31,826 nucleotides of DNA, from NCBI GenBank assembly GCA_021962125.1, contig JAGDYQ010000025.1, positions 5,913,217 through 5,945,042 on the forward strand, written 5' to 3'. The notes beneath the pieces are model-generated. The model did not search any database. It had not been told where the DNA came from and saw nothing but the letters and a program-made list of their open reading frames with translations. This document shows positions 1,808-20,405 of this stretch, in pieces. The position numbers and the translations under genes were made by a program. Positions within the stretch are counted from its first letter, which is position 1, and every line of letters starts with the position of its first letter. This DNA is from Bulinus truncatus. Taxonomy: Eukaryota.

Positions 1808-2140
1808 ATGCCAACTGAAAGAAGAAATATCCCATCCTTACAGGGACCTCACAGCACAAAAACAATTGAAAGAAGAAATATCCCATCCTTTCAGGGACCT
1901 CACAGCGCAAAAACAATTGAAAGAAGAAATATCCCATCCTTACAGGGACCTCACAGCACAAAAACAATTGAAAGAAGAAATATCCCATCCTTACAGGGAC
2001 CTCACAGCACAAAAACAATTGAAAGAAGAAATATCCCATCCTTACAGGGACCTCACAGCACAAAAACAATTGAAAGAAGAAATATCCCATCCTTACAGGG
2101 ACCTCACAGCACAAAAACAATTGAAAGAAAAACTTCATGA
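1808..2140. repeat. 57-bp minisatellite with about 6 copies (unit gaaagaagaaatatcccatccttacagggacctcacagcacaaaaacaatt...).
   Basis: Perfect or near-perfect periodicity. The ORFs on both strands are repeat artefacts. Confidence 0.95.
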
Positions 2141-3424
2141 TAAATATGCAATAACGTTGATCGCGTTATTGTTTTTAGCAATTTTCATTCACTGTTGTCC
2201 TTTTACTTGAGGGTTGTCAATAATTTTGTAATTTAATAGCTTTATTTATTTTTGACTTGGAAAGTGTAACCAAAATACCGTGATTTTCGGGTAATAAATA
2301 CTCTTTTGAAGTTAAATGCCTGCCAGCTACAAAAATTAATTTTCATTTGATTGGGCCAACCAGAGTTTTCTTTTTACTTCTTTTTTACGAACAAGGAAGT
2401 TCGATGGAAATAGGAAATGAATAATAGATAGTTTATTTTTGGTTTTATTTCTAACAATATTATTTCAGTGTAAATTTTCTATCTATAATAAAAAAAATTC
2501 CATATTTTACAACAGAAATTCTTTATAAAATCACAAGTCAGAGAAACAATCTGCGTCTGTCCAGTAACGTGGGTTATCATACAAGAACATTGTTAGGTTA
2601 TCAGCAGCTGATGCAGTGGCGGATATAACGCAAGGGCGCACCTGCTGCACGCCCGGGGCTGGTGTGTGCACAAGGCTCCGCAGAAACCAGCATTACATTT
2701 GTTTCTCTACTCCCCATCATACTATTTAGTTTAAGGGGGCCCAATATCTTCTTCTGCGCCGGGAACCCCAAAAGAACCTTAATCCGAATATGAGTTTGAG
2801 TGTTTAGACTTTCCTTCATTATTGGCACATTTATTGTGAAGTGTCATTATTAAATACAACTATATCTTTACCCTGATTTCAACTGTAACTATCAAGATGA
2901 TGCTTCCAATAAATGAATTATTCTTTTTCAAATGACTTCATGGGTTGAAAGAATTCGCCAAATGTCTCTACAGTAAATCTAGCTATCAATACTACTGGGA
3001 TTCTAGTAGCAAAGCAAAGCCTTGTCTGCATCCAACTGTAGCTGATGTTTATAAGCAACATAAACACTATGGAAGACATATATAAATGTTGTCACCATTG
3101 CTCGAACTAATAGCCTACACATATATCTTTAGACATTAATATTATTATTCTATATTTTTTGTCAAATGTAACCAATCCAGTGGAACCACGCACATTGAAC
3201 GCAATTTGCTGCGGCTGTTCGTTTGTTCTGTCGATTAGCTGGATGTTCGTTTTAAGAAACACAATTTCCAACAAACTTTTATAGGAAATTACGTCTTCTT
3301 TTCTGGATAGCTCCATAATATATATAAAGGAAACATGACAGCACTGTCAAAGGGCAAAGCAAAATAGTAAAATATTTACCAAAACAGTGAAAACTATTAG
3401 CTGATGATCAGATGAGATGGAAAT

Positions 3425-3600
3425 ATAATGAGGAAAGCACACAGACACACACAGAGACACAGATAGACACGCACAGAGACATAGACAGACACACAAAGAC
3501 ACATACCAACACACACGGAGACACAGACAGACACACAAACACAGAGACACACACAGACACACACAAAAAGACACAGACAGACACTCCCAGAGACACAAAC
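3425..3600. repeat. Imperfect (CA)n/(CAGA)n purine-pyrimidine microsatellite.
   Basis: cacacagagacacagacagacacac... The ORFs on both strands here are artefacts. Confidence 0.9.
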
Positions 3601-4033
3601 ATTAAGAACAAGTGAAATGTTTCAATCCGGTTTTATTTTTTAAAGTCAGAGCTGGAATTTGTACCTTTCCAGTTAAAGCAGAAAGTGCTGACCAGATGGA
3701 ACGGACATCCCACTGACAACCCTTTTCTTGGGATCCATTTTAATTGGGTTTCACATTTCACACAGACAACTGGAATAACAATTGCAACAAGAAGACAGTA
3801 CCTTTTATTTTGTTTAACTTGAATATTCAATATTGATATGTCTTCATCTGATCAGATCTTGCCAAATTCAGTTGTTGTTTTTTTGAAGGCGATGTTTCAA
3901 TATGTGGTGCGTTTGTCATGTGGAGCGTTCGTTATGTGGAGCGTTCGTTGTGCAAGTTGTTCGTTAAGTGAGGTACACTGTTTGGTCATAAATGATCACT
4001 TATGGCAGTCCAAATATTAATTCATCATTTTAG

Positions 4034-4235
4034 GATCATCACTGCCCTGGCTACTATTGATGTTTTGGTCTCAACGCTGACCATCATTGTTATTGCCGTA
4101 GACCGCTACTCCACCATTGTCCATACGTCCACGGTAACAACACGTCATGTCGTTTCAGCACTGGTCATTATCTGGACCCTGGCCATTGTATTGTCTACGC
4201 CACTGTTTTGTTTTCATAAGATTGATACTCAGGAG
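4034..4235 (+). CDS. GPCR exon (TM3 with the DRY motif through TM4). The first base completes the split codon AG|G.
   Basis: Translation (R)IITALATIDVLVSTLTIIVIAVDRYSTIVHTSTVTTRHVVSALVIIWTLAIVLSTPLFCFHKIDTQE. AVDRY corresponds to the E/DRY motif and the Trp in TM4 is present. Acceptor ttttag at 4028-4033 and donor gtaaat at 4236. The phase matches the upstream exon. Confidence 0.8.
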
Positions 4236-4377
4236 GTAAATAAATCTACAGATGCTGCAATGTTAGTTTTATGTGGAAAAGATGAATAATTTCTTAAACA
4301 TATTCTTTTTCTTAAAACAAAAGGCAGCAAGAACTTTTCCGTGTAACATTTGTATTATCTAAATTGATTTAAGTGTT

Positions 4378-4680
4378 GTTAGTTATAATCAAAATTCATT
4401 TGAGTGATGGTTTTTATTATCTTAATTCACTTGAGTGATTGTTTTATTATCTAAATTAACTTTGGTGATAGTATTCAATGTTTCTATATTAAAATCCAAC
4501 AAGATCATCTCTATCTTGTATTACCATGGTTCTATAGCAAGTGTAAATTATACTATATAAATCAAAATAATGCTTTAGTGTCCATCTTTATACTTCGACC
4601 TGTGGTCATTATCCTCATGATTTACTATACTTAGACCTGTGGTCATTATTCTCATGACTTACTATACTTAGATCTGGGTT
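4378..4680. repeat. Two short tandem arrays (roughly a 33-bp unit with 3 copies at 4378-4470 and a 43-bp unit with 2.5 copies at 4584-4680).
   Basis: ttattatctaaattcacttgagtgatggtt... and atacttagacctgtggtcattattctcatgacttact... Confidence 0.8.
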
Positions 4681-4950
4681 TTTATTTATTAACTTTTAAA
4701 AAAAAAATAGGAATAACGAAAACATTAAATATAGAACAATGCGTGACAAGAAGACAGAACAGGGTCAATCGACATCAGTAGAGACAGGACGAAGACAATC
4801 GATAAATGTATTTTTTATTTAGAATAAAACTTACAAATGTTTTAAAACTTAATACTTATATAAAACATTTTATTAAAAGTCGCTCATTTTTTTACGTATT
4901 TCGAAACGGAAATATTAAACTCAAAAAAAAATTAGATGTTTAGCATGCTT

Positions 4951-5075
4951 AAAGCTATCCTCAAATCAAAGCGAAGCGTTCCGCTGTGCTATTTCTCACG
5001 TGAGATTTTTCAAAGTGCGAAAAACCCTCGCTACACCTAAGCGAAGCGAACGTAGGCGTCAGCCGACCGGGTATA
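4951..5075. mobile_element. Solo left arm (about 125 bp) of the same MITE family, roughly 90% identical to 6329-6450.
   Basis: Direct comparison of aagctatcctcaaatcaaagcgaagcgttccgctgtgctatttctcacgtgag... with the 6329 copy. Confidence 0.6.
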
Positions 5076-5299
5076 GGGGAAGTTGGGGTAATAGCGGCCA
5101 CATTTTTATTGTCTAGTTTATTATTGTGACTGAAAGCATTATCAATGACAAACTGTGTTATACAAATAGCCCTATGGAACTATTACTATATACCAATAAC
5201 AGTTGGTTATGACTAGTCTACAACTGATGAAAAAAAATTTTTTTTGAAAAAAAATTTTGGCCTAATTTACCCCTATGCTCGGGGTAATTTCGTCATAGG

Positions 5300-5382
5300 T
5301 GGCCAGAATTTCTCCAATCTGAAAACACACATATGTAACATGGCCAGAATTTCTCCAATCTGAAAACACACATATGTAACAC
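5300..5382. repeat. 41-bp direct tandem duplication (ggccagaatttctccaatctgaaaacacacatatgtaaca, 2 copies).
   Basis: Direct repeat read from the sequence. Confidence 0.9.
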
Positions 5383-6315
5383 AAACAAATATCAGTAGGA
5401 AGTTTTACTTTTTCATTTTATTTGTCATGTTCTAAAATTTTATGAATCAGAATACTAAAAAATCTAATGGCAGTATACAGTTTGTCAAGGGCCCCTTTCG
5501 GGGTCCATGCGGTCGTTGTCTAAGAGCATGATCACCTACCGAGTTCTGGCCAGTATTTGTATTTGTCCCAGCCACGTGGTTCCACAGGACGCACACAACA
5601 CAACGAGAAAAGAGTACTCGACAAATGTAAATACAATACAACAGCAAATATTTATTTACATCAAAACAAGAATGAACATCAGCATGTCCTAAAAAGGGCA
5701 GTAGCTTTATCGGCTACTACACATAAATAGAAAAGTAAGCATTAAGACAGAATGGCCTTTACATGGGGCGGGTAGTTCTAAAAAGAACTCAGAACTGAGG
5801 TGGTCGAACATCTAAGTCCTGCCACGCTAACAGCCTGTTTCCCACGCCCCGGCAAAGAAACAGGGGAGTGCCTAGATTTCATTAAAACCAACTCAAAGAA
5901 TGTGACACAGTTGTATTATAAAAAAAATTGTTTCAGTCACAAAGTGAAGTTTTTTTGTTTTCTGTCTTTACCAGCACAGTTTGTGTGAGCCCACTACTGG
6001 CATACCTCGCATTTAATCCAGGGCTCTGAAGAAACTGACCATAATTCAGTTGGCCGAATTTACCCCTTAAACTCTGGCTTTTATTACCCCGTAACAAGGA
6101 GAGTGACATTTAGCGATTATTACGAAATAACTGGACAATATTGCCAATGAGCGATAACACAGACCTCATATGTATAAGATTTAATTTTTAATGCTACTTT
6201 ACCAACTCAAAATCTCGCGCCGTATAAAATAAAACTCTTCATTTTATGAAACAATAAAAAATACTCACTTTGCCCAAATTAGGATTTTGCTTTGTAAACA
6301 AGAAAAACTTTAATT

Positions 6316-7175
6316 TAATCTGATATAAAGCTTTCCTCTAACCAAAGCGAAGCGTACCGCTGTGCTATTTCTCACGTGAGATTTTTCAAAGCGCGAAAAT
6401 CCCTCGCTACACCTAAGCGAAGCGAACGTAGGCGTCAGCCGACCGGATATAATGATTTTTTTAATTTTCTTTTTGTTTATTTGAAGACGTCGGCAGACAT
6501 TTTCTTCTTATGATATATTTTCTACAGTTATGGTATTTTATAAGTAAAAAGTGAAAAAAAACACTTACTGTTTGGTATAATCTGATATAATTCAAGTTGC
6601 TATATATAAATGTAAGTCTTATTTGTTAATTTTAAGACATTTATATCAATTTTAACCTTGATTTTCATTTGAGTCGATGTTTCTAGGCAGCCATTTTGGA
6701 TTGTTTACACTCGCGAAACGCGAAAAAACTCTGAAAGAAGCGATGCCGCGAAATTTCTCTGCACCGCCGCGGAAATTCTACGCGGTTTGAGCATCTCCAT
6801 ATAAATACATTGCCGAGAAATAGGGGCGAATTTCGCGAGCTACCTAGATACGCGAAATTCGCTTTGGTTAGAGGAAAGCTTAATTCAAGTTGCTATATAT
6901 AAATGTAAGTCTTATTTGTTAATTTTAAGACATCTATATCAATTTTAACCTTGATTTTCATTTGAGTCGATGTTTCTAGGCAGCCATTTTGGATTGTTTA
7001 CACTCGCGAAACGCGAAAATACTCTGAAAGAAGCGATGCCGCGAAATTTCTCTGCACCGCCGCGGAAATTCTACGCGGTTTGAGCATCTCCATATAAATA
7101 CATTGCCGAGAAATAGGGGCGAATTTCGCGAGCTACCTAGATACGCGAAATTCGCTTTGGTTAGAGGAGAGCTTA
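6316..7175. mobile_element. MITE-like element with 22-bp TIRs (aagctttcctctaaccaaagcg). The ~293 bp right-hand unit is tandemly duplicated (6583-6882 and 6883-7175).
   Basis: The left end at 6329-6350 is the reverse complement of cgctttggttagaggaaagctt at 6861-6882 and again at 7154-7175 (this copy reads ...gagagctt). The element lies inside the first long GPCR intron. Confidence 0.6.
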
Positions 7176-7290
7176 ATTAAAACGCTTCCATTAATCAAAT
7201 TAAGTTGTTTTTTGTTTTTTTTGTTGTTTCTTTGTTCTTTGTTTTGCTTGTTTTTAAATACTGCTAGAACAAAATGGATTGTCTGTGCAG

Positions 7291-7439
7291 TATACTCATT
7301 ACTTGTTGCTTTTTTCGTTCACATGCCAGTTGTTCCAACACACCTTTGTTCAACAATGTATTGACCATTGGCCAGACGAGTTATTCCGAGAGATTTACAC
7401 AACAGCGGTAATGCTGATACAGTATTTAGCACCAACATT
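7291..7439 (+). CDS. GPCR exon (ECL2 with the conserved Cys, plus the N-terminal half of TM5). The 5' boundary is uncertain: an in-frame alternative acceptor exists at ...catgccag|ttg around 7326.
   Basis: Translation YTHYLLLFSFTCQLFQHTFVQQCIDHWPDELFREIYTTAVMLIQYLAPT. The stretch QQCIDHWPDE..YTTAVMLIQYLAP aligns with vertebrate NPY1R YVCFDQFPSD..YTTLLLVLQYFGP. Acceptor ctgtgcag at 7283-7290 and donor gtaagt at 7440. Confidence 0.75.
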
Positions 7440-7859
7440 GTAAGTTGATGATACACAGATTGAGAATGAAAGGTTTATCATACCAGTAATATCACATAAT
7501 AAAACCATTCTTAAGCTGTAAAGATGAAAATGTTATGCGTATTATTTTATCAGCTTACTACTTCTTATCTAAAATTAAAAGATTATCATCCTGTACGTAG
7601 TATTTAACATGTGTTAAATATCGTAAAATGTCATTTGTGCCATTGATTAATGGTGTTGTCAAAACCTTATAAATTTAAACGTAAGCACATTCGATTATCT
7701 AAAAAGTTTATAATGACGTCATTTTTATAAACAAACTCTAAACGCCAGCAGTGTCAGATGTCTCTATTATATACAATGGATAGTCGTCGTTTCAAATTTT
7801 ATAGATACATGTAACGGATTTTACCAGTCGAATGATATCAAGCAAAGAGACAAAACATG

Positions 7860-8045
7860 GCTAGCCTTAGGCCGATTTGACCGATTGCTCCAAATGGGGC
7901 ACATCGCCTGGCAGGGGCCCCGCTAATGATATTTAGCATATCACTATCAATCATGTTGTTGTAAACAACAATTAGCAGAGGGGGGGCCTCGCAAGCATCC
8001 GTTAAATTGGGCCCCCGCAATTAGAAAGGCCGGCCCTGCCTTTAG
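7860..8045. repeat. GC-rich nested imperfect palindrome (ggcaggggccccgctaat ... attagcagagggggggcc ... gggcccccgcaattagaaaggccggccctgcc).
   Basis: Inverted complementarity is visible in the sequence. It could be a hairpin or a degenerate MITE. Confidence 0.4.
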
Positions 8046-8622
8046 CACACATACTGAATTTTAATTAAGTAGAAGGCTTTAAACTTACAAAACCTATTGA
8101 GTAAAGATTGAAAAGAGATACTTATATCTTATTTACAAGTCATGTCACACTACCGTGTAGATAGATATAAAACACATTCACAGAGCACGTAATGCCATGC
8201 TACCAAGTAGAGAGACATTATTTATATTTACACTCAATAACGGAATGAATTATATCCCATTATTAAACACAACGTCGACTTACAATTATCAAAACTGAAT
8301 ATATGATAACAGTGAATCATCTGTTTAAGAAAGAACATTTAGAGATATAAAATAAATGGTAAAGTACTTTTAATGTAATTTAATAGACAATACAAGCTCA
8401 ACACTGATCTATTACTAATAAATATTTTAAAATGAACAATTAAAAGTACATGAATATAAATCATAACAATTATTAGATACACAGAAACACACGCTTTTTC
8501 CGTGGATATATAATACATTTTCTAAAGACACTAGACACCGGACTTAACGATCATTTTTTCTCCCTTTTTTTTAAATGCCAAACCGGCTTCAAGACAATTT
8601 ATCTATTTTTTTCATCTGCTAG

Positions 8623-8836: not shown

Positions 8837-8869
8837 GTGAGTATAAACTCTATATAAAAGCTGATCTAA

Positions 8870-9200
8870 ACGTCCGATAATAGTTCTAAAAATAGATGAT
8901 TTACGATACAAGGTAATAGTTCTATAAAACATGATTTAAGATACCAGCTAATAGTTCTATAAAATATATGATATGATACCAGGTAACAGTTCTATATAAT
9001 AGATGATCTAAGATACCAGCTAATAGTTCTATAAAATATATGATAAGATACCAGGTAACAGTTCTATATAATAGATGATCTAAGATACCAGGTAACAGTT
9101 CTATATAATAGATGATCTAAGATACCAGGTAACAGTTCTATATAATAGATGATCTAAGATACCAGGTAACAGTTCTATATTATAGATGATCTAAGACACG
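8870..9200. repeat. 37-bp minisatellite (...ataccaggtaacagttctatataatagatgatctaag...) with about 8 copies, starting about 35 bp after the donor of GPCR exon 4.
   Basis: Tandem periodicity. Confidence 0.9.
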
Positions 9201-11110: not shown

Positions 11111-11448
11111 TTTTATGTAATTCTACAGAGCCTTTCAAAGTTCGCATTTTTCTGGACTTTAAAAATAAATAGCACAGTCCTTTCTACTTTCAGAATTCTT
11201 CTATTTTCTTAATTCAACTTATTTAATATTGTTTTAGCTCAAATGTTTCTACGCTCAATTTATAACCTTTGCATCCTGAGGAAAATCAAGTGGTTTCAAT
11301 TGGTTAGAGAATCTAGTGTCTTTATCTCAGAATGGTCCCAATTAAAGGATACAAAAGTGCAATTAATTTGTTCCAAAAAAAAATAACACAACAGTCATGG
11401 AACATGGTTCAATATTTCATTGTGGATGCTGCAAAAATTAGTTGAAAA

Positions 11449-12553
11449 TAAAAGAGTAACAATTGTTGCTGTAATATTGATCTGTGTAACAATTGTTGCT
11501 GTAATATTGAACTATGTAACACTTGTTGCTGTAATATTGAACTGTGAAACAATTGTTGCTGTAATGTTTAACTTTGTAACAATTGTTGCTGTAATACTGA
11601 GCTATTTAACAATTTTTGCTGTAATATTGAACTATACTGTAATATTAAACTATGTAACAATTGTTGCTGTAATATTGAACTGTGTAACCATTGTTGCTGT
11701 AATATTGAGCTGTGTAATAATTGTTGCTGTAATATTGAACTATGTAACAATTGTTGCTGTAATATTGAACTATGTAACAATTGTTGCTGTAATATTGAAC
11801 TATGTAACAATTGTTGCTGTAATATTGAACTGTGTAACAATGGTTGCTGTAATATTGAACTGCCTGACAATTGTTGCTGTAATATTGAACTATTTAACAA
11901 TTGTTGCTGTAATATTGAACTATGTAACAATTGTTGCTGTAATATTGAACTATGTAACAATTGTTGCTGTAATATTGAACTATGTAACAATTGTTGCTGT
12001 AATATTGAACTATGTAACAATTGTTGCTGTAATATTGAACTATGTAACAATTGTTGCTGTAATATTGAACTATGTAACAATTGTTGCTGTAATATTGAAC
12101 TATGTAACAATTGTTGCTGTAATATTGAACTATGTAACAATTGTTGCTGTAATATTGAACTATGTAACAATTGTTGCTGTAATATTGAACTATGTAACAA
12201 TTGTTGCTGTAATATTGAACTATGTAACAATTGTTGCTGTAATATTGAACTATGTAACAATTGTTGCTGTAATATTGAACTATGTAACAATTGTTGCTGT
12301 AATATTGAACTATGTAACAATTGTTGCTGTAATATTGAACTATGTAACAATTGTTGCTGTAATATTGAACTATGTAACAATTGTTGCTGTAATATTGAAC
12401 TATGTAACAATTGTTGCTGTAATATTGAACTATGTAACAATTGTTGCTGTAATATTGAACTATGTAACAATTGTTGCTGTAATATTGAACTATGTAACAA
12501 TTGTTGCTGTAATATTGAACTATGTAACAATTGTTGCTGTAATATTGAACTAT
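11449..12553. repeat. 30-bp satellite (ctatgtaacaattgttgctgtaatattgaa) of about 1.1 kb with roughly 37 copies, inside a GPCR intron.
   Basis: Highly homogeneous central copies with diverged edges. It is open in six frames, which yields the spurious 382-, 320- and 244-aa ORFs. Confidence 0.95.
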
Positions 12554-13136
12554 TGTTGTGGTTTTTAATCTACTCAGGTTAATAAATTGTTTCAATCTAT
12601 TTTTTAAATCTTCATACAATAGGAACAAACACTGTATTAATTAACGGCCTACGTTCATGTCGTATGAGATCTCTGGTTATTTCTACTCAGTTAATGTGCT
12701 GACAGCATATAGGGGCTACGTCACAGATCATTTTCTGATAACATGAAATAAATTAATTTAAAAAAAAAATATCTTGATAGAAAAGTAAATAATATTTACA
12801 GAAAAAACAAAATTATGAAAATAAAAAAAATCATAGATAGCATGCTGATATTATAAACAGTTGGCAGTGGCCATGACAGATATGTCTCATGTGCGGTCTT
12901 CGAAGTACGCGGGGTCTAGGACGAGTGATTCGAGAGCTAAGTCAGGGACGGTCGCCCCAGATGCCACACCCTAAGGCAAGTACTGGACTCATGAGAGAGC
13001 TAAAGATTAGTAGAGGTAGTATGTGTCTCTGAGGTCCACGCCCGCCCCATCCATATATCCACTGGTACACCAAACATTTCCCATTCTTGTTATTGTCACT
13101 AATTGTCAAGTTTATTTCTTTTCGCCCGCCATTAAT

Positions 13137-13335
13137 GTACACATCTCACCATACTTTGACCTACTTTATGTACACATCTCACCTTATTTTGACCTACTTT
13201 ATGTACACATCTCACCTTATTTTGACCTACTTTATGTACACATCTCACCGTATTTTGACCTACGTTATGTACACATCTCACCGTATTTTGACCTACTTTA
13301 TGTACACATCTCACCTTATTTTGACCTACTTTAGT
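13137..13335. repeat. 33-bp minisatellite (tacacatctcaccttattttgacctactttatg) with about 6 copies, ending about 80 bp upstream of the acceptor of the final GPCR exon.
   Basis: Tandem periodicity. The 103-aa and 84-aa ORFs here are artefacts. Confidence 0.9.
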
Positions 13336-13416
13336 AAATGATCTTTACTGTATTTAAGTGTTAGAATTATAACGTTCTTCATCTTGATTAATAGATATAT
13401 TTTTTTTATATCACAG

Positions 13417-14142
13417 GTTTTCCAAGAAAGTCAGTACAATTTGCTCCATGCTGTAAGCCTGCTGTTAGCTATGTCATCATCTGTAGCCAACCCTGTCATG
13501 TATGGTTGGTTCAATACCAACTTTAGGAAAGCATTTTGTGAGTTGCTCGGTTTCCAGGAGGTTGTTAGCGGAAACTTAAAATTTTCTAGCAACGACAGAC
13601 ATCATAAAAAATATTCAAGCTTAAGGAACCACCAGGAATACAATCAACTGTCCAGACCGCCAGTCAATTTTGACACCCAACTACCGCGGTTCCATTCCTC
13701 CCCAGTTTTAAGAATGCGCACTGGCAGGCATAGTTTGAATGACTTGTCAATGACTGACCGGAAACAGTTTTCTTTAGATAAATGTATGAAATGTTCACAC
13801 AGTCTTCATGACTTAAAACATTACAGATATAAAGAAGAAACATCATTACTGGAATACCAGCAAAATGCACTAGCTAAAGAAATCAGGTTGAAAATGACAG
13901 AGAGAAACCCTCTAGTGGTACACGGCCATGATGGTGTGTCTATAGGCCATCCTTATGGAGTGGAGTCCCTGCACAGACGAGATTGTTATATGGCTCATCA
14001 TGAATCTAGTTTAGCGATTTGTTCCCCGGATGACAAGACCGTCAGTCTTCATCTGCTCAATGTGGTGGTGGAAGTGTCCCCGGAGACCCGCTCCACCCAC
14101 CGGGCGCACAGCTCCAGCGATTTAGATACGGACTTGAAATAA
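13417..14142 (+). CDS. GPCR terminal exon: TM7 with NPxxY, helix 8 and a long C-terminal tail, ending at TAA 14140-14142.
   Basis: Translation VFQESQYNLLHAVSLLLAMSSSVANPVMYGWFNTNFRKAFCELL... NPVMYGWFNTNFRKAF aligns with NPY1R NPIFYGFLNKNFQRDL. Acceptor tatcacag at 13409-13416. The phase is continuous with the exon ending at 8836. This is a continuous 242-codon ORF. Confidence 0.85.
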   Translation, partial: VFQESQYNLLHAVSLLLAMSSSVANPVMYGWFNTNFRKAFCELLGFQEVVSGNLKFSSNDRHHKKYSSLRNHQEYNQLSRPPVNFDTQLPRFHSSPVLRMRTGRHSLNDLSMTDRKQFSLDKCMKCSHSLHDLKHYRYKEETSLLEYQQNALAKEIRLKMTERNPLVVHGHDGVSIGHPYGVESLHRRDCYMAHHESSLAICSPDDKTVSLHLLNVVVEVSPETRSTHRAHSSSDLDTDLK

Positions 14143-16667: not shown

Positions 16668-17425
16668 GTGAGACTCACTACAATACGTAGTTCTAGACAT
16701 GGTGTGGCGCCAGACTCACTACAATACGTAGTTCTAGAAATGGTGTGGCGTCAGACTCACTACAATACGTAGTTCTAGACATGGTGTGGCGCCAGACTCA
16801 CTACAATACGTAGTTCTAGAAATGGTGTGGCGTCAGACTCACTACAATACGTAGTTCTAGACATGGTGTGGCGCCAGACTCACTACAATACGTAGTTCTA
16901 GACATGGTGTGGCGCCAGACTCACTACAATACGTAGTTCTAGACATGGTGTGGCGCCAGACTCACTACAATACGTAGTTCTCGACATGGTGTGGCGCCAG
17001 ACTCACTACAATACGTAGTTCTCGACATGGTGTGACGCCAGACTCACTATAATACGTAGTTCTAGAAATGGTGTGGCGCCAGACTCACTACAATACGTAG
17101 TTCTAGAAATGGTGTGGCGCCAGGCTCACTACAATACGTAGTTCTAGAAATGAAGTGGCGCCAGACTCACTACAGTACGTAGTTCTAGAAATGAAGTGGC
17201 GCCAGACTCACTACAATAGAAATGGTGTGGCGCCAGACTCACTACAATACGTAGTTCTAGAAATGAAGTGGCGCCAGACTCACTACAATACGTAGTTCTA
17301 GAAATTGTGTGGCGCCAGACTCACTACAATACGTAGTTCTAGAAATGAAGTGGCGCCAGACTCACTACAGTACGTAGTTCTAGAAATGAAGTGGCGCCAG
17401 ACTCACTACAGTACGTAGTTCTAGA
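16668..17425. repeat. 41-bp satellite (agactcactacaatacgtagttctagacatggtgtggcgcc) with about 18 copies.
   Basis: Direct tandem periodicity with the variants agacatgg and agaaatgaag. Confidence 0.95.
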
Positions 17426-17961: not shown

Positions 17962-18400
17962 TGAAATGTATTCTAATATATTGTAATGTATTAAAATGTA
18001 ATATTATGTATTATTATGTATTATTTTGTATTATTATATATTCTAATGTATTTTAATATAATGTGAAATATAATGTAATATAATGTAATATAATGTATTC
18101 TAATGTAATATAATGTAAAATATAATGTATTCTAATATAATATATTGTATTATAATGTAAAATATAATGTATTATAATGTAATATAATGTAAAATATATT
18201 GTATTATTATGTAATACAATGTATTATAATGTATTTTAATGTAATATAATGTATTCTAATGTAATATATTGTATTTTTATGTAATATATTGTATTTTAAT
18301 GTAATATATTGTATTATAATGTAATATAATGTATTATAATGTAATATAATGTATTATAATGTAATATATTGTATTATAATGTATTCTAATGCTACTTGTC
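17962..18400. repeat. AT-rich 10-bp-period simple repeat (tgtaatataa / tgtattataa)n.
   Basis: Visible periodicity. Confidence 0.85.
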
Positions 18401-18478: not shown

Positions 18479-19970
18479 TTAGGGGCTGTTCATTAATTAT
18501 GTCAACAATTTTTTGGCGATTTTTACATTCCCCCGTTCCCCTTGTCAACAACTTGTCAAACTTACAGAGACCCCCCCCCACCCCATATAAACGTATCAAC
18601 ATTCGACAATAAAATGGGGAAAAAAATACTTTAAATAGACTAGTTTACAACTACAACAAAAAAGTGAATAAATGTAAAATGTTTGAAAAAAAAGTTAAAT
18701 AAACTTTTAACTTATGAATATATTTCTAATTTATAACTATAAAGGCCTACCCTAAACAGAAAAAGAGATTATAGGGTTTAAAAAATTGTATACACATTAC
18801 ACCTTTAAATTATGAACATATTTCAAATTAAATATCACTTTAAAGACTATTTAAATGTTTACAAAGACTTGTTCTAACTTCAAGCAGAAACGAGATTAAA
18901 AAGTTAAACTATAAATACACTTTTAAGTTATTAACATAATATTTTACAAACAAATACAAATCTTATATCCTAGCCTCTATATCTTCCCATGGAAATGTCA
19001 AATGTTCCTCAATTGTTATTATTGGCATAGGTTCTGGCTGAATAATTTCTTGTGGAACCGCAACAACAGATGAGTATATATTTTCTTCATCTAGCCATTC
19101 TGCGCGCATTTCCCCATGAGCAATAATTGTCATGAGCTCTCTGTCTTTTGGCAACCACTCGCATTGGACGAATTCTTTGCATGTAGTATTTGACTGGGGG
19201 CAGGCATACATTGTTTGTGCTGTTGAACGTGCTTCTTTAACATGGCTTGCGATGCAACATAAAGGTGACAGATTTTACAGATTAGTTCAAACTATAGCAG
19301 CTGAATAGATGGACAACATATATCACGCAGAAGAATTTTGAATGCTTTTTGTAGTATGTTTTCAACTTTCACAGACTGATTGAAAAAAATAGATGGAAAT
19401 CTATGTGAGTTTTTATCAGATACATCTGGTGCTTTAAGGCCCTCATTAGTTTGGCAGACTGGAATTGGTGGGGGTATAAATCTATCAGCCATAATATCAA
19501 AGCACGAGCTTCTAAGCGGTTGGCAACATTTGACAACTTGTAGAAAGTACTGACTTGTTCTTACAAGTACTTGATCTTTAATTATTAAATTTTCAACTTC
19601 AAGCTCAGACTTTTCAGGCACAATGTACACTGCCACTGATGGAAAATTGTCTATGCTTACTTGCTTCCATATTTCTGTCAATGTTTCGCCAGCATATTTC
19701 AGGTTTATTTTTCTCAACTTTTCATCAATTGTTCGACCTTGTGTCAATGTGGCTTCCAAAATGTTTATGTGGCAAAATTAGTAGGAATATAGTTAGTTTA
19801 ATTAAAATACTGAAGGTTGGGTGAGTGTATAACACAGAAATACAAAGGCAGTTTAATTATCCGTTGTTAAGTAATTAAATGAATTTAAAGAAAATAACAT
19901 TGTTGACGTCAACTTTTCTTGACCTCACCCTCCCCCTATTTTGTTGACATAATTAACGGACAACCCCTTA
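18479..19970. mobile_element. DNA-transposon-like element of about 1.49 kb bounded by imperfect 30-bp terminal inverted repeats and containing the unidentified ORF pair.
   Basis: The left end ttaggggctgttcattaattatgtcaacaa (18479-18508) matches the reverse complement of 19941-19970, taaggggttgtccgttaattatgtcaacaa, at 26 of 30 positions. Both ends carry subterminal gtcaacaa / ttgtcaaca repeats and C-rich tracts. The right end abuts a (CA)n run. Confidence 0.55.
18963..19759 (-). pseudogene. Unidentified coding region on the minus strand. It consists of a 155-aa ORF (19759-19292) and an 82-aa ORF (19211-18963) that are offset by one frame. It could be a frameshifted gene, a gene with a short intron, or the ORF of a transposable element. 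No homolog was recognised.
   Basis: Two long stop-free stretches sit in a ~33% GC background where random ORFs this long are rare. The second frame stays open back to within about 15 nt of the first ORF's stop codon. The pair lies inside a 30-bp TIR-bounded unit (18479-19970). Confidence 0.35.
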
Positions 19971-20026
19971 CACACACACACACACACCGATCGCTAAGCA
20001 ATTAATATCGTAGACTAATGTAACTC

Positions 20027-20405
20027 ACGACTCATTTATCAGTAGTGAAACACTCAAGACTTATTTATCAGTAGTGAAACACTCAAGACTCATTTATCAG
20101 TAGTGAAACACTCAAGACTTATTTATCAGTAGTGAAACACTCAAGACTTATTTATCAGTAGTGAAACACTCAAGACTTATTTATCTGTAGTGAAACACTC
20201 AAGACTTATTTATCAGTAGTGAAACACTCAAGACTTATTTATCTGTAGTGAAACACTCAAGACTTATTTATCAGTAGTGAAACACTCAAGACTTATTTAT
20301 CAGTAGTGAAACACTCAAGACTTATTTATCAGTAGTGAAACACTCAATACTCATTTATCAGTAGTGAAACACTCAAGACTTATTTATCAGTAGTGAAACA
20401 CTCAT
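20027..20405. repeat. 29-bp minisatellite (actcaagacttatttatcagtagtgaaac) with about 13 copies.
   Basis: Tandem periodicity. It lies immediately downstream of the TIR element and its (CA)n run. Confidence 0.95.

Follow-up and report, generated by a model that had tools for sequence, protein, structure and literature searches.

An internally deleted, decayed DNA transposon, probably of the Zator superfamily, in the genome of the snail Bulinus truncatus

Introduction

Zator is a eukaryotic transposon superfamily that is paired with the prokaryotic ISAzo13 group, formerly TP36 (PMC10045372, PMC5718144, PMC7386202, PMC4455052), and both produce target-site duplications of 3 bp (PMC10045372, PMC5718144). 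It is placed close to the IS630-Tc1-mariner group (PMC7386202) and, according to one report, resembles no Pfam domain (PMC5751038). Zator-1 of amphioxus has 33-bp terminal inverted repeats (TIRs) and TAA/TTA target-site duplications (PMC12905397). According to the Repbase rule, eukaryotic transposases that converge on one bacterial group are grouped together (PMC4455052). In a survey of mollusc transposable elements, Zator was found only in bivalves among the molluscs (PMC10294476).

Here we analysed a 31,826-nucleotide stretch of a Bulinus truncatus contig (the window; all positions refer to it), in which the segment 18482-19967 very probably belongs to the Zator superfamily of cut-and-paste transposons. 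It is a non-autonomous copy with an internal deletion and a pseudogenised coding region, and its assignment follows the published definition of Zator.

Results

An inverted-repeat search identified two arms of 28 nt at 18481-18508 and 19941-19968, which are 89% complementary and spaced 1432 nt apart. A direct repeat TTA/TTA abuts both TIRs (gatcTTA-GGGGCTG on the left and CAACCCC-TTAcacac on the right, with the hyphen marking the boundary). This repeat is a 3-bp target-site duplication, separate from the TIR; the ends are asymmetric if a TA duplication is assumed and symmetric with a duplication of 3 bp. The TIR proper spans 18482-18508 and 19941-19967, with 24 of the 27 positions matching. 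An initial annotation of this DNA had proposed a TIR-bounded DNA transposon with subterminal repeats, in agreement with the inverted arms and the end-located repeats found here. Its count of 26 identical positions out of 30 is correct when 18479-18508 is compared with 19941-19970 in reverse complement, but the outer three nucleotides of that span are the TTA duplication, and the TIR is 27 nt long.

Across the 31.8-kb window, a search with the left 27-mer that allowed up to three mismatches returned just two sites, one at each element end and oppositely oriented, compared to 0 expected from 100 dinucleotide-preserving shuffles, and no second copy or fragment of the element was detected elsewhere in the window. 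Uniqueness of the TIRs had been put forward as an argument against a transposon; the window does hold only this copy, but near-identical TIRs are present in two unrelated metagenome contigs (L002 and L003, see below). The motif GTCAACAA occurs four times in the window, always within the element ends (18501 and 18544 on the plus strand, 19900 and 19941 on the minus strand), with two copies per end in mirror symmetry. While the number of copies is ordinary (4 observed, 1.8 expected), their placement is unusual, and the TIRs together with the GTCAACAA repeats are putative transposase binding sites. The ends and the non-coding parts are composed as follows, where L002, L003, L004 and L008 are related elements described below:

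18479-18481, no strand: left target-site duplication TTA, a direct repeat; matching 3-bp flanks are also found at L004, L002 and L008
18482-18508, plus strand: gene-distal (3') TIR, GGGGCTGTTCATTAATTATGTCAACAA, the inner part of which contains GTCAACAA; the tip GGGGCYGTTCA is common to the L004 TIRs
18509-18600, plus strand: 3' subterminal region with presumed transposase-binding sites, with the box order seen in L004, L002 and L008, namely a T-rich/GGCGA box, a C-rich box, GTCAACAA (18544-18551), its degenerate copy TTGTCAAAC and a second C-rich box
18601-18962, minus strand: AT-rich non-coding 3' region with neither an ORF nor a protein match
19782-19899, minus strand: non-coding remnant leading from the 5' subterminal region to the truncated coding region, which lacks about 508 codons here, among them the DDE core
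19900-19940, minus strand: 5' subterminal region with the palindrome-like motif GTTGACGTCAACAA and the G-rich box GGGGGAGGGTGAGG (gene strand)
19941-19967, minus strand: gene-proximal (5') TIR, reading GGGGTTGTCCGTTAATTATGTCAACAA on the minus strand, with one mismatch to the TIRs of L002 and L003
19968-19970, no strand: right target-site duplication TTA, forming a direct repeat with the left TTA

Two minus-strand ORFs, of 155 aa (19292-19759) and 82 aa (18963-19211), are present between the ends, as first annotated. The 155-aa ORF matches P0001 (E 4e-58, 68% identity), which derives from unannotated metagenome or genome proteins and reaches upstream into DGGPDENPRY...NAPGRSAFNRVERRMAPLS. In tblastn comparisons with the full-length relatives P0065/P0087, the remnant aligned only with residues ~509-765, split over four reading-frame segments and interrupted by a stop codon, while residues 1-508 of the full-length relatives had no match anywhere in the window. 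The four segments are, in gene order:

19745-19781, minus strand: pseudogene segment 1, frame -1, ILPHKHFGSHID; tblastn matches to P0001 (59-85) and P0065/P0087 (509-522)
19214-19744, minus strand: pseudogene segment 2, frame -2, post-catalytic domain; tblastn matches to P0001 and to P0065/P0087 (~520-700)
19138-19200, minus strand: pseudogene segment 3, frame -3, basic patch MQRIRPMRVVAKRQR; tblastn match to P0007 (153-173, 62% identity)
18963-19148, minus strand: pseudogene segment 4, frame -1, C-terminal tail KDRELMTII...PIITIEEHLTFPWEDIEARI with the stop codon; comprises most of the 82-aa ORF

Segment 1 contains the first retained residues, which in the intact relatives directly follow the catalytic E helix, and the deletion breakpoint lies immediately upstream of it. 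Segment 2, which holds the 155-aa ORF, matches P0001 with 68% identity (tblastn, E 1e-77), lacks the conserved W..NH, C.D.. and PRS stretches, and is interrupted by an in-frame TAG (19292-19294) just ahead of a C2H2 zinc finger, CKICHLYVASQAMLKKHVQQH (19217-19279), the finger being supported by weak C2H2 Pfam matches in homologues. Segment 4 matches the C-termini of P0007, P0010 and P0011 (tblastn, 19148-18981), and its PW..E tail is conserved in the family alignment. Altogether, the remnant has accumulated three frame changes, one in-frame TAG and three short in-frame deletions, and these deletions fall in invariant columns of the family alignment (W..NH, PRS and part of the C.D..CC stretch), removing W581, H585 and one Cys of C598/C603 in the numbering of P0065.

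The alignments thus indicate that the ORF pair is the frameshifted and decayed C-terminal third of one transposase gene. Splicing of the two ORFs was considered and rejected; no plausible GT...AG intron lies between them, the sole candidate being of ~35 nt, and the intact relatives carry a single uninterrupted ORF, so that splicing does not explain the pair. Neither is there a single frame offset between the ORFs, as had been suggested, since a third-frame stretch (19138-19200) intervenes and a further frame change is located upstream at ~19745. Three origins had been offered for the ORFs, and the decaying autonomous element is the one that agrees with our data, whereas a novel small protein or a captured host fragment does not fit the C-terminal third of a transposase whose relatives are encoded by one ORF. 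A Pfam scan assigned no family to either ORF, and a DDE domain was unrecognisable in them because the whole catalytic core has been deleted. Scanning the window for Rfam families and tRNAs gave no hits.

The family behind the remnant was explored by a profile search of 1.84 billion representative proteins, which identified 1186 relatives (representative clusters) at E<=1e-3, some of them 740-950 aa long. Full-length members have ~765-800 aa, and the matched lineages comprise molluscs, leeches, arthropods and rotifers, with hosts including the gastropods Bradybaena, Arion and Gigantopelta, the leech Helobdella, many insects, a spider and bdelloid rotifers. The aligned proteins share a coiled-coil N-terminus, a helix-turn-helix-like stretch, three acidic motifs (SQDDKxxVPxG, VDGGPDENPRY and NAPGxSAFNxVERRMAPLS) and C-terminal invariant W, H and Cys residues, followed by the C2H2 finger, the basic patch and an acidic tail ending in PW.E. 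Among 105 homologues of at least 600 aa, SQDDK was retained in 96, DGGPDEN in 95 and PGxSAFNxVE in 99.

No Pfam family covers the protein, which is named only "hypothetical protein", "uncharacterized" or "C2H2-type domain-containing protein" in the databases. For ten long homologues, the only Pfam matches at E<=0.01 were weak ones to C2H2 or HLH domains, and comparison of the family profile with PDB sequences returned only zinc-finger and coiled-coil noise. In contrast, the NCBIfam model of the ISAzo13 transposase, NF033519, matched 6 of 14 full-length members (best E 1.7e-11; none for the other 8), and the matches on different members were collinear, covering profile positions 35-215 and 263-378 of 387. 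Two members also matched PF07592, the Pfam model of the Rhodopirellula transposase DDE domain (DDE_Tnp_ISAZ013), with E 8e-6 and 5e-4. All of these matches scored below the curated cut-offs (43.8 bits against 200 for NF033519 and 25.5 against 26.9 for PF07592), and they therefore indicate remote homology rather than membership of the bacterial family. A tblastn search of plasmids with P0136 for annotated bacterial ISAzo13 genes gave no match. The predicted fold of full-length members is nearest to the catalytic domain of the mariner transposase Mos1, and an RNase H-like catalytic fold with a DDE triad is predicted for the family.

Copies that appear intact and have perfect TIRs were found in genomes from snail, leech, insect and rotifer hosts as well as in metagenomes. 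The 800-aa protein P0161 is encoded on several metagenome scaffolds including L004, where positions 3045-6043 form a 2999-bp unit that contains a single 800-aa ORF, is bordered by perfect 28-bp TIRs, AGGGGCCGTTCACATATTACGTAACGCG (AGGGGCCGTTCAC...), and lies between TAA/TAA flanks. The TIR tip of L004, GGGGCCGTTCA, matches that of the window element, GGGGCTGTTCA. At the gene-proximal end of both elements the TIR is followed by a G-rich box, which is also found after the 5' TIR of L002, L003 and L008, and at the gene-distal end both have, after the TIR, an A/T-CGC box and then a C-rich box, beyond which a short motif occurs as two direct copies ahead of a further C-rich box. A protein identical to the product of the L004 ORF is listed in 59 blocks of the sequence-collection index, which suggests a recently active, multi-copy family. 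On a Bradybaena similaris chromosome (AP039603.1, ~1985-8161), the element L008 shows a matching end architecture and AAA/AAA flanks; its TIRs are 6.2 kb apart, probably owing to an insertion downstream of the gene.

Scanning metagenome contigs with an exact pattern of the TIR consensus of the window element revealed two further elements. L002 (JGI Ga0070694_100059977, 467-1308) is a MITE-like copy of ~840 bp with both ends and CAA/CAA flanks, while L003 (JGI Ga0081606_1030275, ~1229-1608) matched at one end only, followed by TTA, and is possibly ~380 bp long. Their TIRs differ from the snail copy at only 1-2 of 27 bases, which could be due to horizontal spread or to sampled DNA of related invertebrates. 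In two other metagenome copies the 3-bp flanks do not match (TGA/TAA in L005 and TTG/CAA in L006); this mismatch may be an assembly artefact, as a multi-copy repeat is present on these scaffolds, which may be chimeric. The short subterminal motif differs between subfamilies, being GTCAACAA in the window element and L002, GTTAC/GTAACG in L004 and L009 of Helobdella, and GTGACG in L008, whereas the TIR tip GGGGYYRTYCA and the G-rich boxes are constant across L004, L008, L009 and the window ends. A constant tip combined with a varying short repeat is suggestive of a conserved cleavage site with diverging transposase-binding sites, and subfamily-specific motifs are what would be expected if the putative binding sites co-evolve with the transposase.

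The element lies in short unique DNA between two tandem arrays. To the left, a 10/20-bp AT-rich minisatellite of ~42 copies (17965-18391) is ~90 bp away, and to the right a 29-bp satellite of 13 copies with 96% matches (20023-20404) is ~50 bp away, with a (CA)n run (19971-19987) directly adjoining the right TTA. The window as a whole is unusually satellite-rich, with arrays at 11456-12553, 16671-17425, 1812-2129, 6588-7178, 8849-9196 and 13135-13333; the satellites have units of 30 bp (~36 copies), 41 bp (~18 copies) and 51 bp (6 copies, 98% matches), and the further repeats are a 293-bp tandem duplication, a 37/72-bp repeat of ~10 copies and a 33-bp repeat of 6 copies. The long "ORFs" at 11420-12628 and 1800-2210 are mere translations of satellites. 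On the plus strand, 13384-14139 appears to be the last exon of a G-protein-coupled receptor with an NPVMY motif, and its product is 97% identical over 96% of the length to Btru_034659 of Bulinus truncatus ("hypothetical protein, partial").

Discussion

The initial annotation regarded the element as an uncharacterised kind of transposon, a view that changes with its relatives, which encode an ISAzo13/TP36-like DDE transposase and are flanked by 3-bp duplications, as described for Zator. An ISAzo13/TP36-related DDE enzyme was found in the full-length relatives and is missing from the window copy, in which the core is deleted. The window copy is therefore classified by descent from its relatives, as judged by sequence comparison, its own catalytic domain being absent. 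Duplications of 3 bp flank the window element (TTA/TTA), L004 (TAA/TAA), L002 (CAA/CAA) and L008 (AAA/AAA), while L005 and L006 are mismatched. The TIRs measure tens of bp, with 27 nt (24/27) in the window element and 28 nt, perfectly matching, in L004. Regarding autonomy, an intact transposase ORF with a catalytic core is lacking and only residues ~509-765 are retained.

Zator and the window element thus have in common the TIR organisation, a 3-bp duplication (TTA here, TAA/TTA in Zator-1), TIRs of ~30 bp and, for the family transposase, a remote relationship to ISAzo13/TP36 and structural closeness to Tc1/mariner, whereas the window copy differs in being pseudogenised and without the whole catalytic domain. 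The C-terminal Cys-rich region and C2H2 finger of the family, as well as its presence in gastropods, are unmentioned in the Zator literature surveyed. Compared to bacterial ISAzo13, the full-length relatives are collinear over the DNA-binding and DDE regions (profile 35-378 of 387), and 3-bp duplications are described for both groups in the literature, but the eukaryotic proteins have roughly twice the length, with a coiled coil at the N-terminus and, at the C-terminus, an extension of ~250 aa, which is the sole part of the transposase left in the window. Members of the IS630-Tc1-mariner group such as Mos1 and Sleeping Beauty differ as well: they duplicate TA rather than 3 bp and have another end architecture, and the present family has no Pfam match to the DDE families of Tc1/mariner and carries a C-terminal zinc-finger extension.

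It is possible, although unlikely, that the family represents a distinct ISAzo13-like lineage without a name so far, be it a new subgroup within Zator or a sister group to it, marked by the Cys-rich and C2H2 module and the tip GGGGCYGTTCA. A strict form of this idea, by which a distinct eukaryotic ISAzo13-like lineage stands beside rather than within the Repbase Zator families and is recognised by the C-terminal Cys-rich region with the C2H2 finger, GGGGCYGTTCA termini and G-rich subterminal boxes, appears improbable to us. In line with a separate lineage, the protein is without a Pfam family and bears only "hypothetical" or "C2H2-type domain-containing protein" as database names, and a survey using a Zator DDE profile found Zator in bivalves only among molluscs (PMC10294476), yet the present family occurs in several gastropods. 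However, that survey included few gastropods, and its result could also mean that the Zator profile used does not recognise the present family. Moreover, the Repbase rule merges eukaryotic transposases that converge on one bacterial group (PMC4455052), no eukaryotic superfamily other than Zator, which likewise has a 3-bp duplication, is paired with ISAzo13 in the literature, and amphioxus Zator-1 is similar in TIR length and in its TAA/TTA targets (PMC12905397). Membership of Zator as published hence remains our preferred reading.

A non-autonomous PIF/Harbinger (Tourist-like) element with a 3-bp TWA duplication, a TIR starting GGGGCTGTTC and an unrelated captured interior is very improbable. 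The TTA/TTA duplication and the G-rich TIR tip do resemble those of PIF/Harbinger and Tourist-like MITEs, as is familiar for these families. The interior is, however, collinear with the C-terminus of a protein encoded by intact elements that share the TIR tip and the end architecture, and this protein matches the ISAzo13 models and is of another transposase superfamily. Neither the window ORFs nor 14 relatives gave a Pfam match to a Harbinger-type DDE domain (DDE_Tnp_4 or Plant_tran) or to Myb/SANT, the relatives being searched at E up to 10, and the intact elements have a single ORF with no second, Myb-like one. Furthermore, a TWA target fits the TTA of the window and the TAA of L004 but not the CAA of L002 and the AAA of L008. 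We therefore dropped PIF/Harbinger, despite the TTA duplication and the GGGG tip, on the transposase evidence and the CAA and AAA duplications of the relatives.

Hardly credible at all is a functional small protein made from the ORF pair by splicing or frameshifting, be it a truncated DNA-binding repressor or a domesticated or captured host gene: truncated transposases serve as repressors in other systems and the retained C2H2 finger and basic patch could, from their sequence, bind DNA, but the three frame changes, the in-frame TAG just before the finger and the deleted invariant columns, the missing start codon context and promoter-bearing 5' part, the intron-less intact relatives and the single copy in the window with satellites on both sides all speak against it.

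For the preferred Zator-type origin, the following history can be proposed, the transposition steps of which are modelled on what is established for cut-and-paste DDE transposons. The ancestor would have been an element of ~3 kb with TIRs of ~27-28 bp starting GGGGCYGTTCA, subterminal repeats and one intron-less gene for a transposase of ~765-800 aa, comprising an N-terminal coiled-coil and helix-turn-helix, an RNase H-like DDE core, a cysteine-rich stretch, the C2H2 finger, the basic patch and the acidic tail. Bound at the TIR and the subterminal repeats, this transposase would have catalysed excision and integration with staggered target cuts 3 bp apart, and insertion at a TTA would have duplicated this triplet. 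A deletion then took away codons 1 to ~508 and with them the whole catalytic core, after which the copy could presumably have moved only with transposase supplied in trans by an intact relative. The remaining ~255 codons later decayed through small deletions, three frame changes and one stop codon, which gives the apparent pair of 155-aa and 82-aa ORFs. Given 3 differences between the 27-nt TIRs and a ruined coding region, the copy in the window is most likely an inert and immobile fossil.

In conclusion, the locus is a fossil transposon without a plausible present function, which should be masked as a repeat and in which no genes should be annotated. At the same time, it ties a large set of animal proteins named "hypothetical" or "C2H2-type domain-containing" to an ISAzo13-like (Zator-type) transposase, and supplies an end architecture for such elements, consisting of the TIR tip, G-rich boxes and subfamily-specific subterminal repeats. 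With full-length members in Bradybaena, Arion and Gigantopelta and the remnant in Bulinus, the family is present in gastropods, in contrast to the Zator survey in which only bivalves were positive (PMC10294476). The ISAzo13-like family may still be active and spreading horizontally among invertebrates, and apparently intact copies of ~3 kb, such as L004, are candidates for activity.
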